DNA of 9,859 nt from a virus (taxonomy: Duplodnaviria > Heunggongvirae > Uroviricota > Caudoviricetes), in IMG/VR virus record IMGVR_UViG_2585427757_000009; one strand, written 5' to 3'. Both the position numbers and the translations under genes were made by a program. Within the stretch, counting starts at the first letter, position 1; each line of letters starts with the position of its first letter. The notes beneath the pieces are model-generated. The model was not told where the DNA came from, ran no database searches, and saw nothing but the letters and a program-made list of their open reading frames with translations. Positions 790 to 9,605 of this stretch are shown here, in pieces.

Positions 790-1872
790 ATGAAAAAATT
801 AACAGTGGCAATTTCTGCTGTAGCTGCATCAGTACTGATGGCGATGTCTGCTCAGGCAGCTGAAATTTATAATAAAGACAGTAACAAGCTGGATCTGTAC
901 GGGAAAGTTAATGCTAAGCACTACTTCTCCTCTAATGATGCAGATGATGGTGATACTACTTATGCCCGTCTTGGCTTCAAAGGTGAAACCCAAATCAACG
1001 ATCAACTGACTGGTTTCGGTCAGTGGGAATATGAATTCAAAGGCAACCGCGCTGAATCTCAAGGTTCCTCCAAAGATAAAACCCGTCTTGCCTTCGCTGG
1101 CCTGAAATTCGGTGACTACGGCTCCATCGATTACGGCCGTAACTACGGTGTAGCATACGACATCGGTGCGTGGACTGACGTCCTGCCAGAATTCGGTGGT
1201 GACACTTGGACTCAAACAGATGTGTTCATGACTGGTCGCACCACTGGTGTTGCAACTTATCGTAACAACGACTTCTTTGGTCTGGTTGATGGTCTGAACT
1301 TTGCTGCTCAGTATCAGGGTAAAAATGACCGCACTGACGTAACTGAAGCTAATGGTGATGGTTTCGGTTTCTCCACTACTTATGAGTATGAAGGATTCGG
1401 TGTAGGTGCAACCTATGCTAAATCTGATCGCACTAATAATCAGGTTATCTACGGTAACAACGGTCTGAATGCTTCTGGTCAAAATGCTGAAGTATGGGCA
1501 GCTGGTCTGAAATATGATGCGAACAACATCTATCTGGCCACCACCTATTCTGAAACCCAGAACATGACTGTTTTTGGTAATAACCATATTGCCAACAAAG
1601 CACAAAACTTCGAAGCTGTTGCACAATATCAGTTCGACTTCGGCCTGCGTCCATCCGTTGCTTACCTGCATTCTAAAGGAAAAGACTTGGGTGTTTGGGG
1701 TGATCAGGACCTGGTTGAATATGTTGATGTAGGTGCAACCTATTACTTCAACAAAAATATGTCCACTTTTGTTGACTACAAAATCAACCTGATTGATAAG
1801 AGCGATTTCACGAAAGCATCTGGCGTTGCTACCGATGATATCGTTGCTGTAGGTATGGTTTACCAGTTCTAA
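790..1872 (+). CDS. nmpC: General outer-membrane porin, NmpC/Lc (OmpC/OmpF/PhoE) family, 360 aa, apparently intact
   Basis: ORF begins [23 protein letters not shown] (signal peptide, AQA-AE cleavage site) and ends with the porin C-terminal YQF. Close match from memory to the prophage-borne NmpC/Lc porin. High-expression-like codon usage. Confidence 0.9.
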
Positions 1873-3309: not shown

Positions 3310-3472
3310 GATTCCTCCTTGCTGCCAGTCGCAACCATTTTTTATCAACCAGGCTGGCGGTATATCCGAGCAGTGTTGGTATTTCGGAAGGCTTCAGCTC
3401 CGGTTTACGCTTACGACGATTTGGTACTCTGTAGATGTGTCCGTTCATGACACGAATAAGCGGTGTAGCCAT
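3302..3472 (-). CDS. ninE: NinE, 56 aa
   Basis: Hand translation from ATG (3472-3470): [56 protein letters not shown], stop TGA at 3302-3304. Start overlaps the ybcN stop (TAATG); end overlaps the ybcO start. Below the ORF-track cutoff. Confidence 0.8.
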   Translation of the reverse strand: MATPLIRVMNGHIYRVPNRRKRKPELKPSEIPTLLGYTASLVDKKWLRLAARRNHG

Positions 3473-3927
3473 TACGCCTCCTGTTTGTCGCGGAGCTGCT
3501 GGAACTCGCAGCTCTGCGGAATAGTCAGGTGGCAGCCAATATTCATCGCCCAGGCTTCAACCTTACACAGGAAGACATACATCTCTCCGGTATCAAGATC
3601 GGAGGTATGGCGTAACGACTGGATAGTGGTGATATCACCGGTTACGACATCAACCAGGTCTTTGGTTTCATAACCGAGATATGTGTGTTTGAGAGCATCT
3701 TTTACCCAAGCTGGAGTGGCGAACGTTTTACCCTTGCTGATGAGGTATTCACTGATTTCGCTGTACCACATGTGGCTGAGTGCATTCTGGGAAAGACTGC
3801 GTCTCTCGCGCCACGGTTTAAGCACCATGCGAAAGCATTTGCCCTCCTCCAGATAAGGCTGGATCTGCCGACCGATAGCGGTGAAGTTACCGCGATGCAA
3901 TTTGATACCATCTTGTGGGAGGTTCAC
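3472..3927 (-). CDS. ybcN: YbcN-like nin-region protein, 151 aa
   Basis: [66 protein letters not shown]... with GTG start at 3927 preceded by GGAGGT. Conserved order ybcN-ninE-ybcO-rusA. Confidence 0.8.
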
Positions 3928-4046
3928 GCTTCACCTCCGCAGAGATCAAACGCTGGATGCAAAATATCGCAGGTGCATTTCTGCATCTGTGAATGGAGAA
4001 GAGAGGTTGGATTGTATGTGCGCATAAACGTCCCCGTTTAGCGCAG

Positions 4047-4079
4047 AAGTCACCGGAGGAGTTCAAACTCCGGTGACTT
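4047..4079. repeat. Perfect 12-bp inverted repeat / hairpin with 9-nt loop, between the HNH-gene stop and the ybcN start
   Basis: aagtcaccggag (4047-4058), loop gagttcaaa, ctccggtgactt (4068-4079). No clear U-tract on either strand. Confidence 0.5.
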
Positions 4080-4119
4080 AATTATGGCAAGTTGATTGTT
4101 GAAAATCAATTTAGTGGAT

Positions 4120-4902
4120 TTAGGCGCAATACAAAGGATCATTAGCAGCTCTAATACCGCCCTGAATCGCAAGCCCTGTATGGCAATTTGACATTGAGCA
4201 TGATTGCCATCTGTGCAAGGGACCTCCATTAATCGAAACTTCCAGCAGATCTTTATCTCCTTTCATCCTGACCCCTTCATACAACATATCAAGACGCTCA
4301 ACAATCAATCCTGTTGGAGGTTCCATTTTTAGAACGAGGGCAAACTCTCCTGGCCCACGTCGTATTGTTATACGCGGGCCGGTACACTCCACATCCCAAT
4401 TGTCTGATTTAGCTTTCCATTCATTTTCATCTATCAGTAAAGTCTCCTTACCAATAGAATTACAGAAAATTCCTGATAAAAGCATCGGTCCATGTGGTAT
4501 GGGTGAAGGTTTCACAGAAAGAATGGGTTGTTCGTTGACTACAATCAAATTTTGACAGTTATGAAACGTCACTCCTGCAAATTTTACTGTTATAGGCTCA
4601 TTATGAAAATCAAACATTTCATTTGCAAAACCAGCCTGTAAGCACTTGGGATTTCTGTCAGCTATTTCCACTGTCTGTGCTGAAAGTCTACCACGAGCTC
4701 TTTTTTGATTGCATTGGGAGCAAAGAAGTGTCATTCCATTCGGATCATGTACTTTGGCATCAACGAAGTCAGGTTTAAAATGCTCATAATCATAAAATCC
4801 AAATCCACAAATTACACAGCCAAAGCCGCACCTTTGCCTTATCTGACGTTTTATTGTCTCAGGTATTCTTCTTGAGAGCCCGTGTTTATTAATATTGTCC
4901 AT
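4120..4902 (-). CDS. Hypothetical protein, 260 aa, N-terminal HNH (beta-beta-alpha-Me) nuclease motif with CxxC...CxxC zinc ribbon; C-terminal ~185 aa of unknown fold
   Basis: ATG at 4902. Residues ~25-70, CGFGCVICGFGFYDYEHFKPDFVDAKVHDPNGMTLLCSQCNQKRARG, fit the HNH consensus (CxxC, E/D-H, P, N, CxxCN, K). Visibly lower GC than the flanking nin genes. Confidence 0.6.
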   Translation of the reverse strand: MDNINKHGLSRRIPETIKRQIRQRCGFGCVICGFGFYDYEHFKPDFVDAKVHDPNGMTLLCSQCNQKRARGRLSAQTVEIADRNPKCLQAGFANEMFDFHNEPITVKFAGVTFHNCQNLIVVNEQPILSVKPSPIPHGPMLLSGIFCNSIGKETLLIDENEWKAKSDNWDVECTGPRITIRRGPGEFALVLKMEPPTGLIVERLDMLYEGVRMKGDKDLLEVSINGGPLHRWQSCSMSNCHTGLAIQGGIRAANDPLYCA

Positions 4903-5032
4903 ATGGTTAGTACGCTATAAGTTTGTTTCTATAATTTTACCACAATAGATAAGTTTGTATCAGAAATCGCTATATGGAGTGAGCGGAATATTTATATTAT
5001 TCATGCAATTGCTCTCCCGTACGCAGCCCGCA

Positions 5033-5058
5033 CTTCCGTCATCGCAGAATGACGGAAG
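5033..5058. repeat. Perfect 10-bp inverted repeat with 6-nt spacer, 19 nt 3' of the 107-aa ORF
   Basis: cttccgtcat (5033-5042), cgcaga, atgacggaag (5049-5058). No adjacent U-tract. Confidence 0.5.
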
Positions 5059-5076
5059 CCTTACTAACTAGCGCCT

Positions 5077-5400
5077 TTATTGAAACAGATTCTGAGGTAA
5101 ATGCGGCAATACTCGACTCCACTTATCATCCTGCCACGGCTGAAGTTTTACATGTGCCGTTTCTCGGACGAGGATTGCTCGCGCTCTGTTGAGTATCTGG
5201 GGATATTCTTGCTCGATAGAAGTGAAGCGACCAGCTTCACGATGCTCCGCAACCTGAAGAAGAGGAGTAACGTTCTGGTAGGTAATTAACATCACATTCC
5301 CTGCTCGCCATAACCAGGCGAGTGTGCAAAGTTCGTTATCAGTGAATTGTTTTGTGATTGGGGATTGTTGAACTGCTAGAACGAGAACGCCAGCATCCAT
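5077..5400 (-). CDS. Hypothetical protein, 107 aa, no recognisable family
   Basis: ATG-initiated ORF MDAGVLVLAVQQSPITKQFTDNELCTLAWLWRAGNVMLITYQ... between the ybcK-like gene and the HNH gene, same strand. Coding status unproven. Confidence 0.35.
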   Translation of the reverse strand: MDAGVLVLAVQQSPITKQFTDNELCTLAWLWRAGNVMLITYQNVTPLLQVAEHREAGRFTSIEQEYPQILNRARAILVRETAHVKLQPWQDDKWSRVLPHLPQNLFQ

Positions 5401-5511
5401 TGGCAGTCCCTATAGTAAAACCATAGCTCAGGACGCTTCGTTCAGGATAGATAATTTTATTGTACTTACCTAACTTTCTTACTATAGCACGGTTGAAAAA
5501 GTGATTATTAC

Positions 5512-7038
5512 TCAAAAATAAACCTCACCATCAACCATATATTTGAGAGCACTTATCGCCTGCTGGGCGGATATTACTTTCATTAAAGGATAGTGTTTAA
5601 AAACAATGCCATTCATAAAATAGATATCACAGGTTTTATTATCCGTATTAATTATGATTTTTTCGAATGTTTTATAGGCAAGTGTACGGCATAACTCTCG
5701 TCCATTTTTACTGGTTAAGTCAATAGCATAAAAATCACTGAATGAATTTACACCTTTACTCTTCAAAGTTTTCAATGATACCGAAGCCCTTCTTAATTCC
5801 TTATCTAATAGTCTTATTTTCTCTGCTATAGCGGTAACTTCAGGCGCGACAGACAATGCAACGATTAAATTATTAATTTTCATCTGAAGCTCAATAATTT
5901 TTAACTCTAAAGTTTCATTAGCATCTTTCTTGTTTTCAACTGGTTGAATTTTGCTACAATTAAAAAGCAATTCATTAATGATATTATAATCAACCAAATC
6001 TCTTTTTATTGATGGCCTGTCACATCGATGTAATCTTCTCATCGGACAAACATAATAGCCATGCAAACTTCCAGATACCGCATGAACAATCATGGTATTA
6101 CCACAAGCCTCACACTTCATAACTGTTCGAAGTAGATTTATTAGCATAGGATTCTTGCTACTATTGCTAATACCAAAAGGTGCCAACCGAATTTCCTGTA
6201 CAGCGTAAAACAAATCATCTGATATGACTCTGGGATAATAGCCAGCGATTTCACTTATCCCTTTCCCTCTTGCACGATATGAAGGTACGCATATACCTAT
6301 CAGAGCTTTATTCGCTAATAATTTTTCAATTACAGAAGGTCCCCATGCACTTTCTTTTCCTGAGAAATTCTTTACAGCATGATCATTTAAATACTTGGCT
6401 ATTGCATTCAATGAGCGCCTTTCCATCCTGAGTTTAAAAATTAGCTCAATAGTTTTCACCCTGTCGGGGTCTGGAACAAAACCCGTTCTTTTGTCATCTA
6501 AGGAGAGCCATCTCGGACAAGACGCCGTCATAATCGTACCTGATTCCAGTGCATCCTGCCGTTTTTTCTTCCATGATAATTTAACCCGACTTGACTTTAT
6601 CTCGCTTTCTTCATTTGCCCTTTGTGCTATAAGTATGGCTTTTATTAATGAATATGGCTCATTCAAAGAGTCAATATTATAGACTGTATTGTCGCAAAGA
6701 GTTATAACATCAATACCGTGATTCAAAATCAATTTCAGACGTTCAATCGCTTCACCGACTTTTTCTCTTGAAAGTCTGTCCAGACTTTCAACTAACAATG
6801 TAGTTCCTGGCAATATATAACCATGCTCTATAGCATCTAAAAATTCCGAAAAAGCTCCTGATTGTGCATGCTTTCCTTTGAATGCACTTAATCCTAAATC
6901 TTCATATGTTATGGTATCAAGATAATAATCACTATTTACCTTTAACCATTCAGCAATAAGTCTTCTCTGTCGGTTTAATGAGTCACCAGACATCTGACCT
7001 GGTGATGAAAATCGCATATATGCTATGGCTTTTTTCAT
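5512..7038 (-). CDS. ybcK: Large serine recombinase family protein, 508 aa, YbcK-like
   Basis: N-terminus AIAYMRFSSPGQ...SLNRQ and LLVESLDRLSR match resolvase catalytic motifs. Cys-rich segment CEACGNTMIVHAVSGSLHGYYVCPMRRLHRCD fits the zinc ribbon of large serine recombinases, followed by a coiled-coil-like C-terminus. Strongly AT-rich by eye. Confidence 0.85.
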   Translation of the reverse strand: MKKAIAYMRFSSPGQMSGDSLNRQRRLIAEWLKVNSDYYLDTITYEDLGLSAFKGKHAQSGAFSEFLDAIEHGYILPGTTLLVESLDRLSREKVGEAIERLKLILNHGIDVITLCDNTVYNIDSLNEPYSLIKAILIAQRANEESEIKSSRVKLSWKKKRQDALESGTIMTASCPRWLSLDDKRTGFVPDPDRVKTIELIFKLRMERRSLNAIAKYLNDHAVKNFSGKESAWGPSVIEKLLANKALIGICVPSYRARGKGISEIAGYYPRVISDDLFYAVQEIRLAPFGISNSSKNPMLINLLRTVMKCEACGNTMIVHAVSGSLHGYYVCPMRRLHRCDRPSIKRDLVDYNIINELLFNCSKIQPVENKKDANETLELKIIELQMKINNLIVALSVAPEVTAIAEKIRLLDKELRRASVSLKTLKSKGVNSFSDFYAIDLTSKNGRELCRTLAYKTFEKIIINTDNKTCDIYFMNGIVFKHYPLMKVISAQQAISALKYMVDGEVYF

Positions 7039-7237
7039 GGTGACACCTGCTAACGTATGCTTTTATAAACCTTAGTGGCGGGATATAATTTTTTTTTAAT
7101 TTTTATTTAAAAAAACAATTAAGGTCACATTATCTTGAATATACAACAATAATCGTATTGCAATTTTCTTACGCCATAATCTTGAAAGCACAAAAGAACA
7201 CATAAAAAAATAAAGACATTAACAAAAAGCATAAAAC

Positions 7238-7263
7238 GAGGCTCATATAAATATAAGAGCCTC
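7238..7263 (-). terminator. Candidate rho-independent terminator of emrE
   Basis: 7-bp stem gaggctc (7238-7244) / gagcctc (7257-7263) with 12-nt loop. On the minus strand it is followed by GTTTTATGCTTTTTGTT, about 30 nt after the emrE stop. Confidence 0.45.
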
Positions 7264-7294
7264 CATATTTTAGTCGTTTAGAAACAAATTATTT

Positions 7295-7627
7295 TTAATG
7301 TGGTGTGCTTCGTGACAATAGATTAATAACCAACACACCGGCACAAATTAACATCATGCCTATAATGGCTGGCAGGTCCAGCCGTTGGCCGAAAAGTCCC
7401 CATGACAGTAAGCTAATCAGGACAATACCGACTCCTGACCAGATAGCATAAGCAATCCCTGTAGGAATATAAGCCAGCGTCTGAGCTAATAACCAGAATG
7501 ATGCACAATAACAAATAATTGTACCAACAGATGGCCATAACCGTGTAAAACCTTCTGAAAACTTCATTAAGGTTGTACCAATGACCTCTGCAAGTATTGC
7601 ACCACCAAGATAAATATAAGGGTTCAT
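7295..7627 (-). CDS. emrE: Small multidrug resistance (SMR) efflux transporter EmrE, 110 aa
   Basis: Internal ATG at 7627 gives MNPYIYLGGAILAEVIGTTLMKFSEGFTRLWPSVGTIICYCASFWLLAQTLAYIPTGIAYAIWSGVGIVLISLLSWG...LSRSTPH. AGGAAAG Shine-Dalgarno upstream. The track ORF extends 18 codons further, probably spuriously. Confidence 0.95.
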   Translation of the reverse strand: MNPYIYLGGAILAEVIGTTLMKFSEGFTRLWPSVGTIICYCASFWLLAQTLAYIPTGIAYAIWSGVGIVLISLLSWGLFGQRLDLPAIIGMMLICAGVLVINLLSRSTPH

Positions 7628-7694: not shown

Positions 7695-7996
7695 TCATTG
7701 TGTACCCATTGATGTTCTTTTATATACCCTCAATACCCGTTTCATCGCGGCACTCTGGCGACACTCCTTAAAAATCAGATTCGTGCTCACCTTTCCTTCC
7801 CGTTCTTCTCTGGTAGCGAACCGGTAATACACCGTTCGCCAGACCTTACCATCAACGACCAGGATTCCTGCCCGGCCATTTTAGCCGCAGCCTGATTTAT
7901 GCTGGTTACGGTTGCGCCTGTTACCGCGGCAACGTCCTGCGCACAGAAGTTCTTATGAGTCCCCAGGTAATGAATAATTGCCTCTTTGCCCGTCAT
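7695..7996 (-). pseudogene. ren: ren-like gene disrupted by an apparent 1-nt deletion (frameshift) near 7871-7876
   Basis: The ATG frame at 7996 gives MTGKEAIIHYLGTHKNFCAQDVAAVTGATVTSINQAAAKMA (lambda Ren-like), then leaves frame. A contiguous second frame encodes GILVVDGKVWRTVYYRFATREEREGKVSTNLIFKECRQSAAMKRVL..., stop at 7695-7697, also Ren-like. Start overlaps the P stop. Confidence 0.65.
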
Positions 7997-8694
7997 ACAC
8001 TTGCTCCTTTCAGCCCAAACTTAGCTTTGATTTCTGCGATCTTCGCCAGAGCCTGTGCACGATTTAGAGGTCTACCGCCCATGACAGGAAGTTGTTTTAC
8101 TGGTTCAGGTATAGCCTCACCACGGTTAATTCGCGCGATCATACAGGACAGTTCATCGGCAGCCTTGCGCCGTAATTCCGCGTCAGTCAGCGCATTGGCT
8201 CGCATGTTCTGGTACAGGTTGGTAACCAGCCAGTAGTGCGCGTTTGATTTCCACGGATAAGACTCTGCATCCGGATACAGCCCGCGCTTCCGGCAATACT
8301 CGTAAACCATATCAACCAGCTCGCTGGCGTTTGGCAGCCCGGCGGTAACGGATGCTTCTTCCCGGCACCAGGCGACAAACTGCCCGGGTGATGGCAGGAA
8401 TGGTCGATTCTGCCGACGGGCTACGCGCATTCCTGCGTTAACCTGTTCCATTGTGGTGATCCCGTTTTCCCGGAAAGCCAGAACCCACTGGCGGCGGATT
8501 TCGTTCAGTTCATTCTGGTCACGGTTAGCCAGGCTCGCCGGGAAAGTTGCCAGTAACTGGCTGAACACACCGTTGATGATCTGCGCTACCTGCTGTACCT
8601 GTGGCTTTTCGTCGTACTGTTCCGGCATGTTGTTGGCGATCCGACGCATCTGCTCACAGTCAAAGTTAACCATTTGTGCGGCGATGTTTTTCAT
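7993..8694 (-). CDS. P: Lambda-type replication protein P (DnaB helicase loader), 233 aa
   Basis: MKNIAAQMVNFDCEQMRRIANNMPEQYDEKPQVQQVAQIINGVFSQLLATFPASLANRDQNE...KAKFGLKGASV is near-identical from memory to lambda P. ATGA overlap with the O stop. Confidence 0.9.
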   Translation of the reverse strand: MKNIAAQMVNFDCEQMRRIANNMPEQYDEKPQVQQVAQIINGVFSQLLATFPASLANRDQNELNEIRRQWVLAFRENGITTMEQVNAGMRVARRQNRPFLPSPGQFVAWCREEASVTAGLPNASELVDMVYEYCRKRGLYPDAESYPWKSNAHYWLVTNLYQNMRANALTDAELRRKAADELSCMIARINRGEAIPEPVKQLPVMGGRPLNRAQALAKIAEIKAKFGLKGASV

Positions 8695-9605
8695 AAATCC
8701 ACCCCATAAATCCAGTCAGTGTTTGTCAGGTCCAGTTTTGATTTTCCGGCTGTCACTCCAGCCTGTTGCTTGTTACGGTTGATTTCGAGTTGGGTCCACT
8801 TGTCACGGAGTTTGGCCGGACTTAGCACGTTACCGGACCAGAAGTTGTCCTGGCATGCCCAGCGGAACAGCACGCACATGTCGCGGTGGTTACGTCCGTC
8901 ACGTTCACGCATCAGGCGGATATCGTTAGCCCACCCTGCAAAATTCGGTTTTCTGGCTGATGGCGCGATGGTCTTCACCATGTCAAACATCCACTCTGCG
9001 GCGGTCAGGTCTTCTGCTGTCCCCCACTTGCTGCCGCTCTGAATTGCAGCATCCGGTTTCACCACAGGAAGATCGTTTTCTGGTTGGTCAGAGGATTCGC
9101 CAGAATTCTCGGACGAAAAAGGTTTTATATTGTCTTTTGTTAGTTTGTCTTTTGTGTTTACCTGATTCGGGTAAACGCCTTTACCTGATTTGGGTAAACT
9201 TTTTTTACCTGATTCAGGTAAATTTACCTCTTTCAGGTAAACTTTATTTTTCTTACCTGATTCGGGTAATGTTGACCATTCACTGACCACATTATTAATG
9301 CCGGTATTCCGCCCGCTCTGAATAAAAATCCCACGCTTTACCAGAACACTTTTTGCAGCAGAACACTTGTGCGGCAATATCCCGGTTAATTCGGAAAGTT
9401 GCTCGTTGCTAACCCAATCCAGTTTTTTATTAAAGCCATATGTTTTGCGCATGACAGCCAGAAAGACCAGAAGCTGGTGCTGTGTTAATCCGGCCAGCAT
9501 CACAGCTTCCAGCAACTCATTTGCAATGCGCGTATAACCATCATTGTCAGCGCCAATGATATAAGACAGTAATTCACCATTTGGATTGTCCGCTCCACCC
9601 AACAT
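8691..9605 (-). CDS. O: Lambdoid replication initiator O, 304 aa; lambda-like C-terminal (P-interaction) domain, divergent N-terminal iteron-binding domain
   Basis: C-terminus ...DNFWSGNVLSPAKLRDKWTQLEINRNKQQAGVTAGKSKLDLTNTDWIYGVDL is lambda-O-like. N-terminal region (NDGYTRIANELLEA...) has O architecture but different sequence. Iterons lie inside the gene. Confidence 0.85.
   Translation of the reverse strand: MLGGADNPNGELLSYIIGADNDGYTRIANELLEAVMLAGLTQHQLLVFLAVMRKTYGFNKKLDWVSNEQLSELTGILPHKCSAAKSVLVKRGIFIQSGRNTGINNVVSEWSTLPESGKKNKVYLKEVNLPESGKKSLPKSGKGVYPNQVNTKDKLTKDNIKPFSSENSGESSDQPENDLPVVKPDAAIQSGSKWGTAEDLTAAEWMFDMVKTIAPSARKPNFAGWANDIRLMRERDGRNHRDMCVLFRWACQDNFWSGNVLSPAKLRDKWTQLEINRNKQQAGVTAGKSKLDLTNTDWIYGVDL
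9158..9269. repeat. Replication origin iterons: five copies of a ~17-bp dyad-symmetric repeat (consensus TTACCTGATTCGGGTAA) inside O, flanked by an AT-rich stretch (9121-9157)
   Basis: Copies at 9158-9174, 9181-9197, 9205-9221, 9224-9240 (variant) and 9253-9269, each with TTACC/GGTAA inverted ends. The iterons encode the repeated LPESGKK linker of O. Confidence 0.75.

Follow-up and report, generated by a model that had tools for sequence, protein, structure and literature searches.

The stretch analyzed here, the 9,859-nucleotide virus record IMGVR_UViG_2585427757_000009 from IMG/VR (Caudoviricetes; hereafter the window), is a DLP12-like lambdoid Escherichia coli prophage with its early-right operon on the minus strand (Table 1). 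A preliminary description had singled out positions 4120-5400 as a cargo of two genes, an open reading frame (ORF) of 107 amino acids (aa) and a 260-aa protein with an N-terminal HNH motif. Both ORFs do lie there, and they share the minus strand with O, P, the nin genes, and Q. The position had also been called variable, and we indeed found unrelated, interchangeable cargo in this slot between conserved flanks. However, the object of interest is the single 260-aa gene and not a pair, and we consider this gene a credible, testable candidate for a single-protein HNH defense system.

Table 1 Features of the window and alternative cargo of the same slot in other DLP12-like prophages (positions are those of the window unless a comparator locus, L003 to L024, is named)
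Feature	Position	Strand	Remarks
260-aa HNH and all-beta protein gene (260-aa ORF)	4120-4902	-	Intact; WP_001348590-type; phrog_6544, E 1.8e-141
HNH (beta-beta-alpha-metal) domain	4639-4902	-	Residues 1-88
C-terminal all-beta domain	4123-4638	-	Residues 89-260; about 16 strands
Upstream region of the HNH gene	4903-5025	-	Cassette-specific, not common to other DLP12-like prophages
Promoter-like site	4934-4963	-	CTGATA, 18 nt, TG-extended TAAAAT; consensus match only
Swappable cassette	4110-5096		Right border fixed at 4109/4110; left border 5026, 5084, or 5097, depending on the comparator
Conserved right flank	3924-4109	-	ylcH homolog (3924-4025) and hairpin 4047-4079
Hairpin	4047-4079	-	Perfect, 12 bp; z -4.75
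Hairpin	5033-5058	-	Perfect, 10 bp, 6-nt loop; 19 nt downstream of the 107-aa stop codon
107-aa ORF	5077-5400	-	
ylcH homolog	3924-4025	-	
ybcN/NinB	3472-3927	-	
ninE, ybcO, rusA, quuD	Downstream of ybcN		
emrE-ylcJ-ybcK variable block	5512-7627	-	Edge coincides with the Bro-N gene truncation
ybcK	5512-7038	-	Large serine recombinase
emrE	7295-7627	-	
ren homolog	7695-7996	-	
P	7993-8694	-	
O	8691-9605	-	
Porin gene	790-1872	+	
Slot cargo: BstA, 309 aa			PADLOC, E 3.6e-121, full length
Slot cargo: HEPN protein, 138 aa, overlapping a familyless 133-aa ORF	L005 2388-3184		Weak match to PDC-M28A, E 2e-7
Slot cargo: 118-aa protein	L003 2663-3019		No Pfam or defense-database match
Slot cargo: 169-aa protein	L004 2794-3303		No Pfam or defense-database match
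Slot cargo: alpha/beta hydrolase, 347 aa	L024 1826-2869	+	No defense-database match
Slot cargo in K-12: ybcL-ybcM			

The N-terminal domain of the 260-aa protein has the beta-beta-alpha fold, and the HNH motif noticed earlier is backed by PHROG HNH families (E 5e-4) and by conserved residues. The Pfam HNH profile (PF01844) scored 14.5 bits against this protein (E 0.041), which is below its cutoff of 21.4, whereas a distant family member, P0196, exceeds this cutoff with 25.0 bits. In an alignment of 36 sequences of the family, 46 columns are invariant; they include C29, C32, E40, H41, C61, and N65, and C64 is nearly invariant. The zinc site of the domain is made up of C29, C32, C61, and C64. 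We take E40-H41 to be the putative metal ligand and general-base histidine, and N65 to be at the putative metal-binding His/Asn position of canonical HNH domains; distant relatives carry a histidine at this position (CxxCH).

The C-terminal domain had been described as unassigned, and so it stands, with about 170 residues that match no Pfam family and no known fold. AlphaFold2 modeled the full-length protein with confidence (predicted local distance difference test [pLDDT] score 84), as it did the C-terminal domain by itself (pLDDT 83), and no match to this all-beta domain was found among solved or viral structures. A sequence-profile search of the PDB returned gp160 as its sole match (E 0.048), which we rejected as spurious, and no internal duplication was found in the domain (hhalign probability 1.9%). 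Among members at 33-57% identity, H41, H52, C29, C61, N160, and D170 are invariant and W169 is nearly so, a pattern suggesting that N160, W169, and D170 form a conserved site of polar and aromatic residues in the beta domain.

Among 5,426 complete E. coli genomes, the HNH gene is found in 82, always at ≥99% identity, and it is intact in 80 of them. The other two carry a partial gene, which in ST12468 occurs as two places of about 50% each; this suggests that the gene of that strain is disrupted, possibly by an insertion. Outside this close group, 305 full-length homologs at 50-79% identity were found in Enterobacter, Klebsiella, Citrobacter, Serratia, Burkholderia, Comamonas, Alcaligenes, Undibacterium, Pseudomonas, and Vibrio. 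A profile of the domain recovered 1,505 clusters at 50% identity, and the position of the domain, which starts close to residue 88 in almost all of them, shows a fixed two-domain architecture. Some distant relatives carry additional TPR, CxxCxxCC, or SEC-C tails, which would represent the kind of modularity typical of conflict systems. Against seven homologs, non-synonymous divergence is 0.16-0.34 per site and synonymous divergence 0.78-0.87, the latter being saturated; constraint acts on both domains and is stronger on the N-terminal one. These values indicate that the family is under strong purifying selection.

The genomic surroundings of the relatives share little beyond the gene itself. 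No neighbor is common to nine genomic contexts, and when 80 IMG/VR loci were clustered by their neighboring proteins, no neighbor was common across identity classes. Homology between genera is confined to the coding region. Taken together, these comparisons indicate that the 260-aa gene is inherited as a solitary unit. Most of the contexts are accessory positions of prophages, often directly upstream of NinB-type genes. In Pseudomonas prophages the gene is in the early-left region, on the opposite strand, and in Alcaligenes and Burkholderia it is close to lysis and tail genes; one context is a chromosomal islet with an insertion sequence element and HicAB. A relative was found on 103 IMG/VR contigs and in only one of 50,697 deposited phage genomes, that of a temperate Klebsiella phage.

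Some neighbors are of interest in their own right. In Enterobacter (L006-L009, 7806-9185), the HNH relative directly follows P; beyond it come two small ORFs and a RES-domain protein of 459 aa, a possible toxin or defense cargo. In an Alcaligenes prophage (L018, 6001-9338), the family member is followed by a different HNH protein of 245 aa (PADLOC mREase_IV, E 3.5e-7) and a DUF4238 protein; beside lysis and tail genes, this trio is a small candidate defense cluster. Finally, 23 Klebsiella-type loci share an upstream neighbor of 194 or 217 aa that is lineage-specific and has no Pfam family.

The limits of the element that carries the gene were drawn by blastn against four DLP12-like prophages (L002-L005) and K-12. 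In each of these five, homology on the right stops at 4109, which is 10 bp past the stop codon of the 260-aa gene. On the left, homology restarts at one of three places (Table 1), and in K-12, which has no Bro-N remnant (see below), only at 5473. The borders at 4109 and at 5026, 5084, or 5097 therefore define an exchangeable unit that runs from about 4110 to between 5025 and 5096, and its only content is the 260-aa gene together with the roughly 170 nt upstream that belong to it. The base composition is in keeping with the earlier remark that the cargo is AT-richer than its flanks as far as the HNH gene goes, with a guanine-plus-cytosine (GC) content of 40.9% and 32% at third codon positions (GC3), compared with 50-53% and about 59% for ybcN and rusA. 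The 107-aa ORF is intermediate and only mildly AT-rich (46.9% GC).

The right flank of the cassette is present in 2,936 of the complete E. coli genomes. It retains a YlcH homolog of 33 aa, 27 residues of which are identical to K-12. The earlier statement that K-12 carries ybcL-ybcM between ybcK and ylcH is borne out in MG1655, but ylcH itself has not been replaced here. The O26 prophage (L005) has a second copy of 3948-4085 (at 4509-4646) that flanks the neighboring cassette. The duplicated segment of 138 bp consists of the 3′ part of ylcH and the hairpin at 4047-4079, and it stands on both sides of a block made up of the Bro-N gene and a HEPN gene. Such a duplication fits a right flank that serves as a recurrent, reusable recombination boundary.

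Two perfect inverted repeats had been thought to bracket a gene pair. Both exist, and each folds better than 200 of 200 shuffled sequences, but they are separate local hairpins: the one at 5033-5058 sits between the two genes, and the other is part of the conserved flank. The former has a folding energy of -26.6 kcal/mol with its context (z -4.08) and recurs in L004, whereas L002 and L003 do not have it. Neither was called in an intrinsic-terminator scan because both lack a U-tract. An Rfam scan of the window gave no RNA family, so the hairpins are not known RNA elements.

The 107-aa ORF had been thought to belong to no recognizable family. However, Pfam P22_AR_C matches it with 57.6 bits (cutoff 22.4, E 1.3e-15), and PHROG Ant families match it as well. 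Sister prophages encode a 202-aa protein with Bro-N and P22_AR_C domains, and from residue 5 onward the 107-aa ORF aligns to residues 101-197 of this protein with 81% identity (BLASTP). The Bro-N domain of these homologs is missing from the 107-aa ORF. The DNA homology ends at 5399 (blastn), beside the emrE-ybcK block, and the ATG of the 107-aa ORF therefore sits in junction sequence next to ybcK. One strain (L004) has an internal stop in this ORF. The ratio of non-synonymous to synonymous substitution rates (dN/dS) is 0.17-0.85 for the remnants versus 0.06-0.11 for full-length Bro-N/P22AR-C copies, although the counts are small. The remnant is found in 839 of the complete E. coli genomes, which makes it about ten times as common as the HNH gene. 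It adjoins BstA, 118-aa, or 169-aa cargo in other prophages, and in most comparators it falls within the conserved flank. PADLOC and NCBIfam gave no usable match for it. From these observations, we read the 107-aa ORF as the decaying, 5′-truncated remnant (the 3′ half) of a Bro-N/P22AR-C antirepressor-like gene that was cut at the emrE-ybcK block, which may have truncated it upon arrival. Conceivably, the lone P22AR-C domain retains some residual function.

The nature of this ORF bears directly on the proposal, made in the preliminary description, that the cargo consists of a nuclease with a small partner, in which the HNH nuclease would have the 107-aa protein as its immunity protein, antitoxin, or regulator. 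It is easy to see why such a pair was proposed, as the 107-aa ORF lies upstream of every full-length E. coli copy of the HNH gene (80 genomes) and in 17 of 18 IMG/VR loci of this type, and the two ORFs are 174 nt apart in the same orientation. However, a gene stump that belongs mostly to the flank, that is present in 839 genomes versus 82 with the HNH gene, and that also stands beside other cargo does not have the distribution of a partner. In addition, the stop codon in one strain and the raised dN/dS speak against a maintained function, and a hairpin and the cassette border divide the two genes. The relatives in Enterobacter, Klebsiella, Pseudomonas, Burkholderia, Alcaligenes, and Undibacterium have no such neighbor, nor does any of the 62 IMG/VR loci that are not of the E. 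coli type. We consider the pair to be effectively refuted by its distribution, with hardly any probability left to it. The judgment that none of the readings could be decided from sequence was thus too pessimistic for the partner hypothesis, while it was fair for the biochemical function. On the whole, the earlier observation is partly confirmed and its interpretation partly supported.

The other occupants of the slot suggest what kind of place it is. The BstA allele is found in 121 of the complete E. coli genomes, and BstA is an experimentally validated abortive-infection defense protein of prophages, its E. coli homolog included (10.1101/2020.07.13.199331). The HEPN protein and its overlapping 133-aa ORF occur together in O26 and O157-type DLP12-like prophages and are a possible two-gene defense or toxin-antitoxin candidate. 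Next to it, from ren to the Bro-N/P22AR-C gene, is a second slot with variable content. The window has emrE-ylcJ-ybcK there, and L022 and L023 (4459-5961) have PD-Lambda-1 (PADLOC, E 1.9e-198), a DUF4041 protein encoded on the plus strand; in these two loci the Bro-N gene is full length. The stretch therefore behaves like a cargo and defense hotspot of prophages.

Exchange at such a slot might also be the work of the gene itself. As a free-standing HNH homing endonuclease, it would behave selfishly, cutting prophage or phage alleles that lack it and spreading as the break is repaired by copying, and several properties of the 260-aa gene would suit this reading: a free-standing HNH ORF amid conserved phage genes, a sporadic distribution (82 of the 2,936 genomes that bear the slot), a low GC content, and an ORF that alone is conserved between hosts, and unusually well across genera. 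The adjoining flank, which is ≥99% identical only in about 83 carriers, could likewise be a co-conversion tract. However, no allele with an empty site was found, as the slot is always filled by other cargo. The junction at 4109 is also used by BstA, HEPN, and other cargo that is not an endonuclease, so that recombination at conserved flanks accounts for the exchange. Relatives are spread over many places instead of one homing site. Pfam detects no NUMOD, IENR, HTH, or AP2 module in the 260-aa protein, whose C-terminal domain is an orphan beta fold, and the family is nearly missing from phage genome records, although HNH homing genes are plentiful there. We therefore disfavor a homing endonuclease and judge it improbable.

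The reading that we favor, to which we give about an even chance, is that the 260-aa gene is a candidate single-protein, nuclease-based moron that would protect the lysogen from other phages. The anti-phage or exclusion reading, already among those of the preliminary description, is supported because the same slot carries BstA in other prophages and the adjacent one PD-Lambda-1. The HNH domain would be the DNA-cutting effector, presumably expressed in the lysogen, and the all-beta C-terminal domain would act as a discrimination or regulatory module, with N160/W169/D170 as its putative ligand site. Two versions of this mechanism can be imagined. In the first, the C-terminal domain would target the nuclease to foreign DNA, which might be modified DNA, as with type IV enzymes such as McrA. 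In the second, it would keep the nuclease inactive until a phage cue is bound, in the style of abortive infection. An immunity partner would be unnecessary in either case. A more far-reaching proposal is that the protein represents a new and widespread family of single-protein anti-phage nucleases, in which N160/W169/D170 would allow a novel sensor fold to recognize either a modification of phage DNA or a phage protein and to release cleavage without an immunity partner. This we advance only tentatively, and we would rather doubt it than assume it. At 50% identity, the putative family would comprise at least 1,505 clusters, from Gamma- and Betaproteobacteria as well as other groups.

Several points weigh against a defense function. 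PADLOC 2.0 (the 2023 release of PADLOC-DB, which covers Septu PtuAB, Zorya ZorE, and type IV restriction endonucleases among others) gave no significant match to the 260-aa protein, its best being PtuB with an E value of 0.031 and 12 bits, and NCBIfam gave no match. No modified-DNA reader domain (SRA, EVE/PUA) was detected in the C-terminal domain. The promoter-like site upstream of the gene is a weak consensus match, and shuffled sequences show that such sites are not above chance. The fact that the slot sometimes holds defense genes is guilt by association only, and ybcL-ybcM and the hydrolase, which are not known defense genes, occupy the same slot. Finally, the orientation of the gene with the early-right operon could point to a function in the lytic cycle. 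As for the literature, the protein accession was not mentioned in any of the papers searched, searches on BstA, lambdoid prophages, HNH proteins, and hotspots gave nothing on this locus, and the protein does not appear in the searched parts of the DefensePredictor supplements (PMC13092281).

The last of these objections leads to a phage-cycle nuclease, which would be expressed with the early-right/nin operon on induction and would process recombination or replication intermediates or degrade host DNA, to the benefit of the phage and not of the lysogen. The nin-region nucleases RusA and lambda Rap/NinG are models for such a role, and structure-specific nucleases also have the HNH fold. The 260-aa gene shares its orientation with O, P, ybcN, rusA, and Q and stands at the start of the recombination-rich nin region, and in at least seven IMG/VR loci that are not of the E. 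coli type, relatives at 55-97% identity lie directly upstream of NinB-type genes. However, the family is almost missing from sequenced phage genomes, and relatives are found at unrelated prophage positions in Pseudomonas, Alcaligenes, and Burkholderia as well as in the HicAB islet, which is not a prophage. The slot is dispensable, holding unrelated cargo in most DLP12-like prophages, and the 260-aa protein has no match to NinG, RusA, or any other recombination family in Pfam. Moreover, the HNH gene is intact in a decaying cryptic prophage with a frameshifted ren. Compared with the 97.7% identical prophage of strain 600468 (over 9.5 kb), which has an intact ren of 100 aa, a 1-bp deletion near 7875 splits this gene in the window into ORFs of 69 and 45 aa; this is a sign of decay of the prophage copy, while the HNH gene remains intact. 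In light of these findings, a role in the phage cycle is unlikely, but it deserves to be kept in view.

Two further candidates were rejected. A restriction-modification system was considered, and methyltransferases lie within 1-3 kb in three contexts only (Klebsiella, Pseudomonas); no DNA methyltransferase is nearby in the E. coli, Enterobacter, Burkholderia, Alcaligenes, and Undibacterium contexts. An HNH packaging factor associated with terminase was also considered, and the terminase genes are far off, beyond the lysis cassette.

Elsewhere in the window, the similarity to strain 600468 stops at 9544, within the 5′ part of O, at a mosaic joint in the region of replication-origin specificity. 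The nmpC/ompC-like porin gene is intact and encodes 360 aa; in the DLP12 of K-12, this gene is split by IS5.

From a biological perspective, if the 260-aa gene is a true defense nuclease, a compact single-gene system with a new sensor fold would be added to the bacterial immune repertoire. The junction between P and ninB in DLP12-like and other lambdoid prophages, a site found in more than half of the complete E. coli genomes, would then be a defense hotspot, and the other uncharacterized cargo found there (the HEPN protein and its 133-aa ORF, the alpha/beta hydrolase, and the proteins of 118 and 169 aa) would become defense candidates, too. A phage-cycle or selfish nuclease would make it an ordinary finding. 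In any case, a tempting misreading is corrected, as the upstream ORF is a gene stump and not an immunity partner.

Among known systems, the stump itself compares most directly with Bro-N/P22AR-C proteins, with which it shares the P22_AR_C domain but not the Bro-N half or the native start, its start codon lying in junction sequence. Free-standing phage HNH homing endonucleases, such as I-HmuI and the T4 Mob family, resemble the 260-aa gene as small HNH ORFs between conserved phage genes with a patchy distribution, whereas the 260-aa gene differs from them in having no recognized DNA-binding module, no empty target allele, and many insertion contexts. The defense nucleases with HNH domains that act with partners also differ: in Cap5 (HNH-SAVED) of CBASS, the HNH domain is joined to a SAVED domain that the 260-aa protein does not have, and no cyclase is nearby; for PtuB, the HNH protein of Septu and Retron-Eco7, no PtuA ATPase or retron is found near the 260-aa gene, which is always solitary.

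McrA is a partnerless, prophage-borne (e14) HNH enzyme of type IV and is modification-dependent. However, the domain order is reversed between EcoKMcrA and the 260-aa protein, in which the HNH domain is N-terminal, and the reader domain of EcoKMcrA, like SRA and EVE readers, has no sequence or fold similarity to it. BstA, in turn, takes up this very slot, within the same junctions, in other DLP12-like prophages; it is a single gene and protects lysogens, as proposed here for the 260-aa gene. The two proteins are unrelated, BstA being KilA-N-like and not a nuclease, and BstA has a cognate DNA immunity element, aba, to which nothing comparable was identified at the 260-aa locus. Another parallel is DS-7/SVIR, a single-protein defense of E. 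coli that was validated in the DefensePredictor study (PMC13092281); its HNH domain is N-terminal, and its C-terminal domain resembles a phage baseplate protein. No homology between the two proteins is detectable (hhalign probability 0.3%), and the C-terminal domain of DS-7/SVIR is the baseplate-like DUF2634, whereas that of the 260-aa protein has no match. Nevertheless, both combine an N-terminal HNH domain with a beta-rich C-terminal domain of a non-enzymatic type, and both are encoded by a single gene of the E. coli accessory genome.

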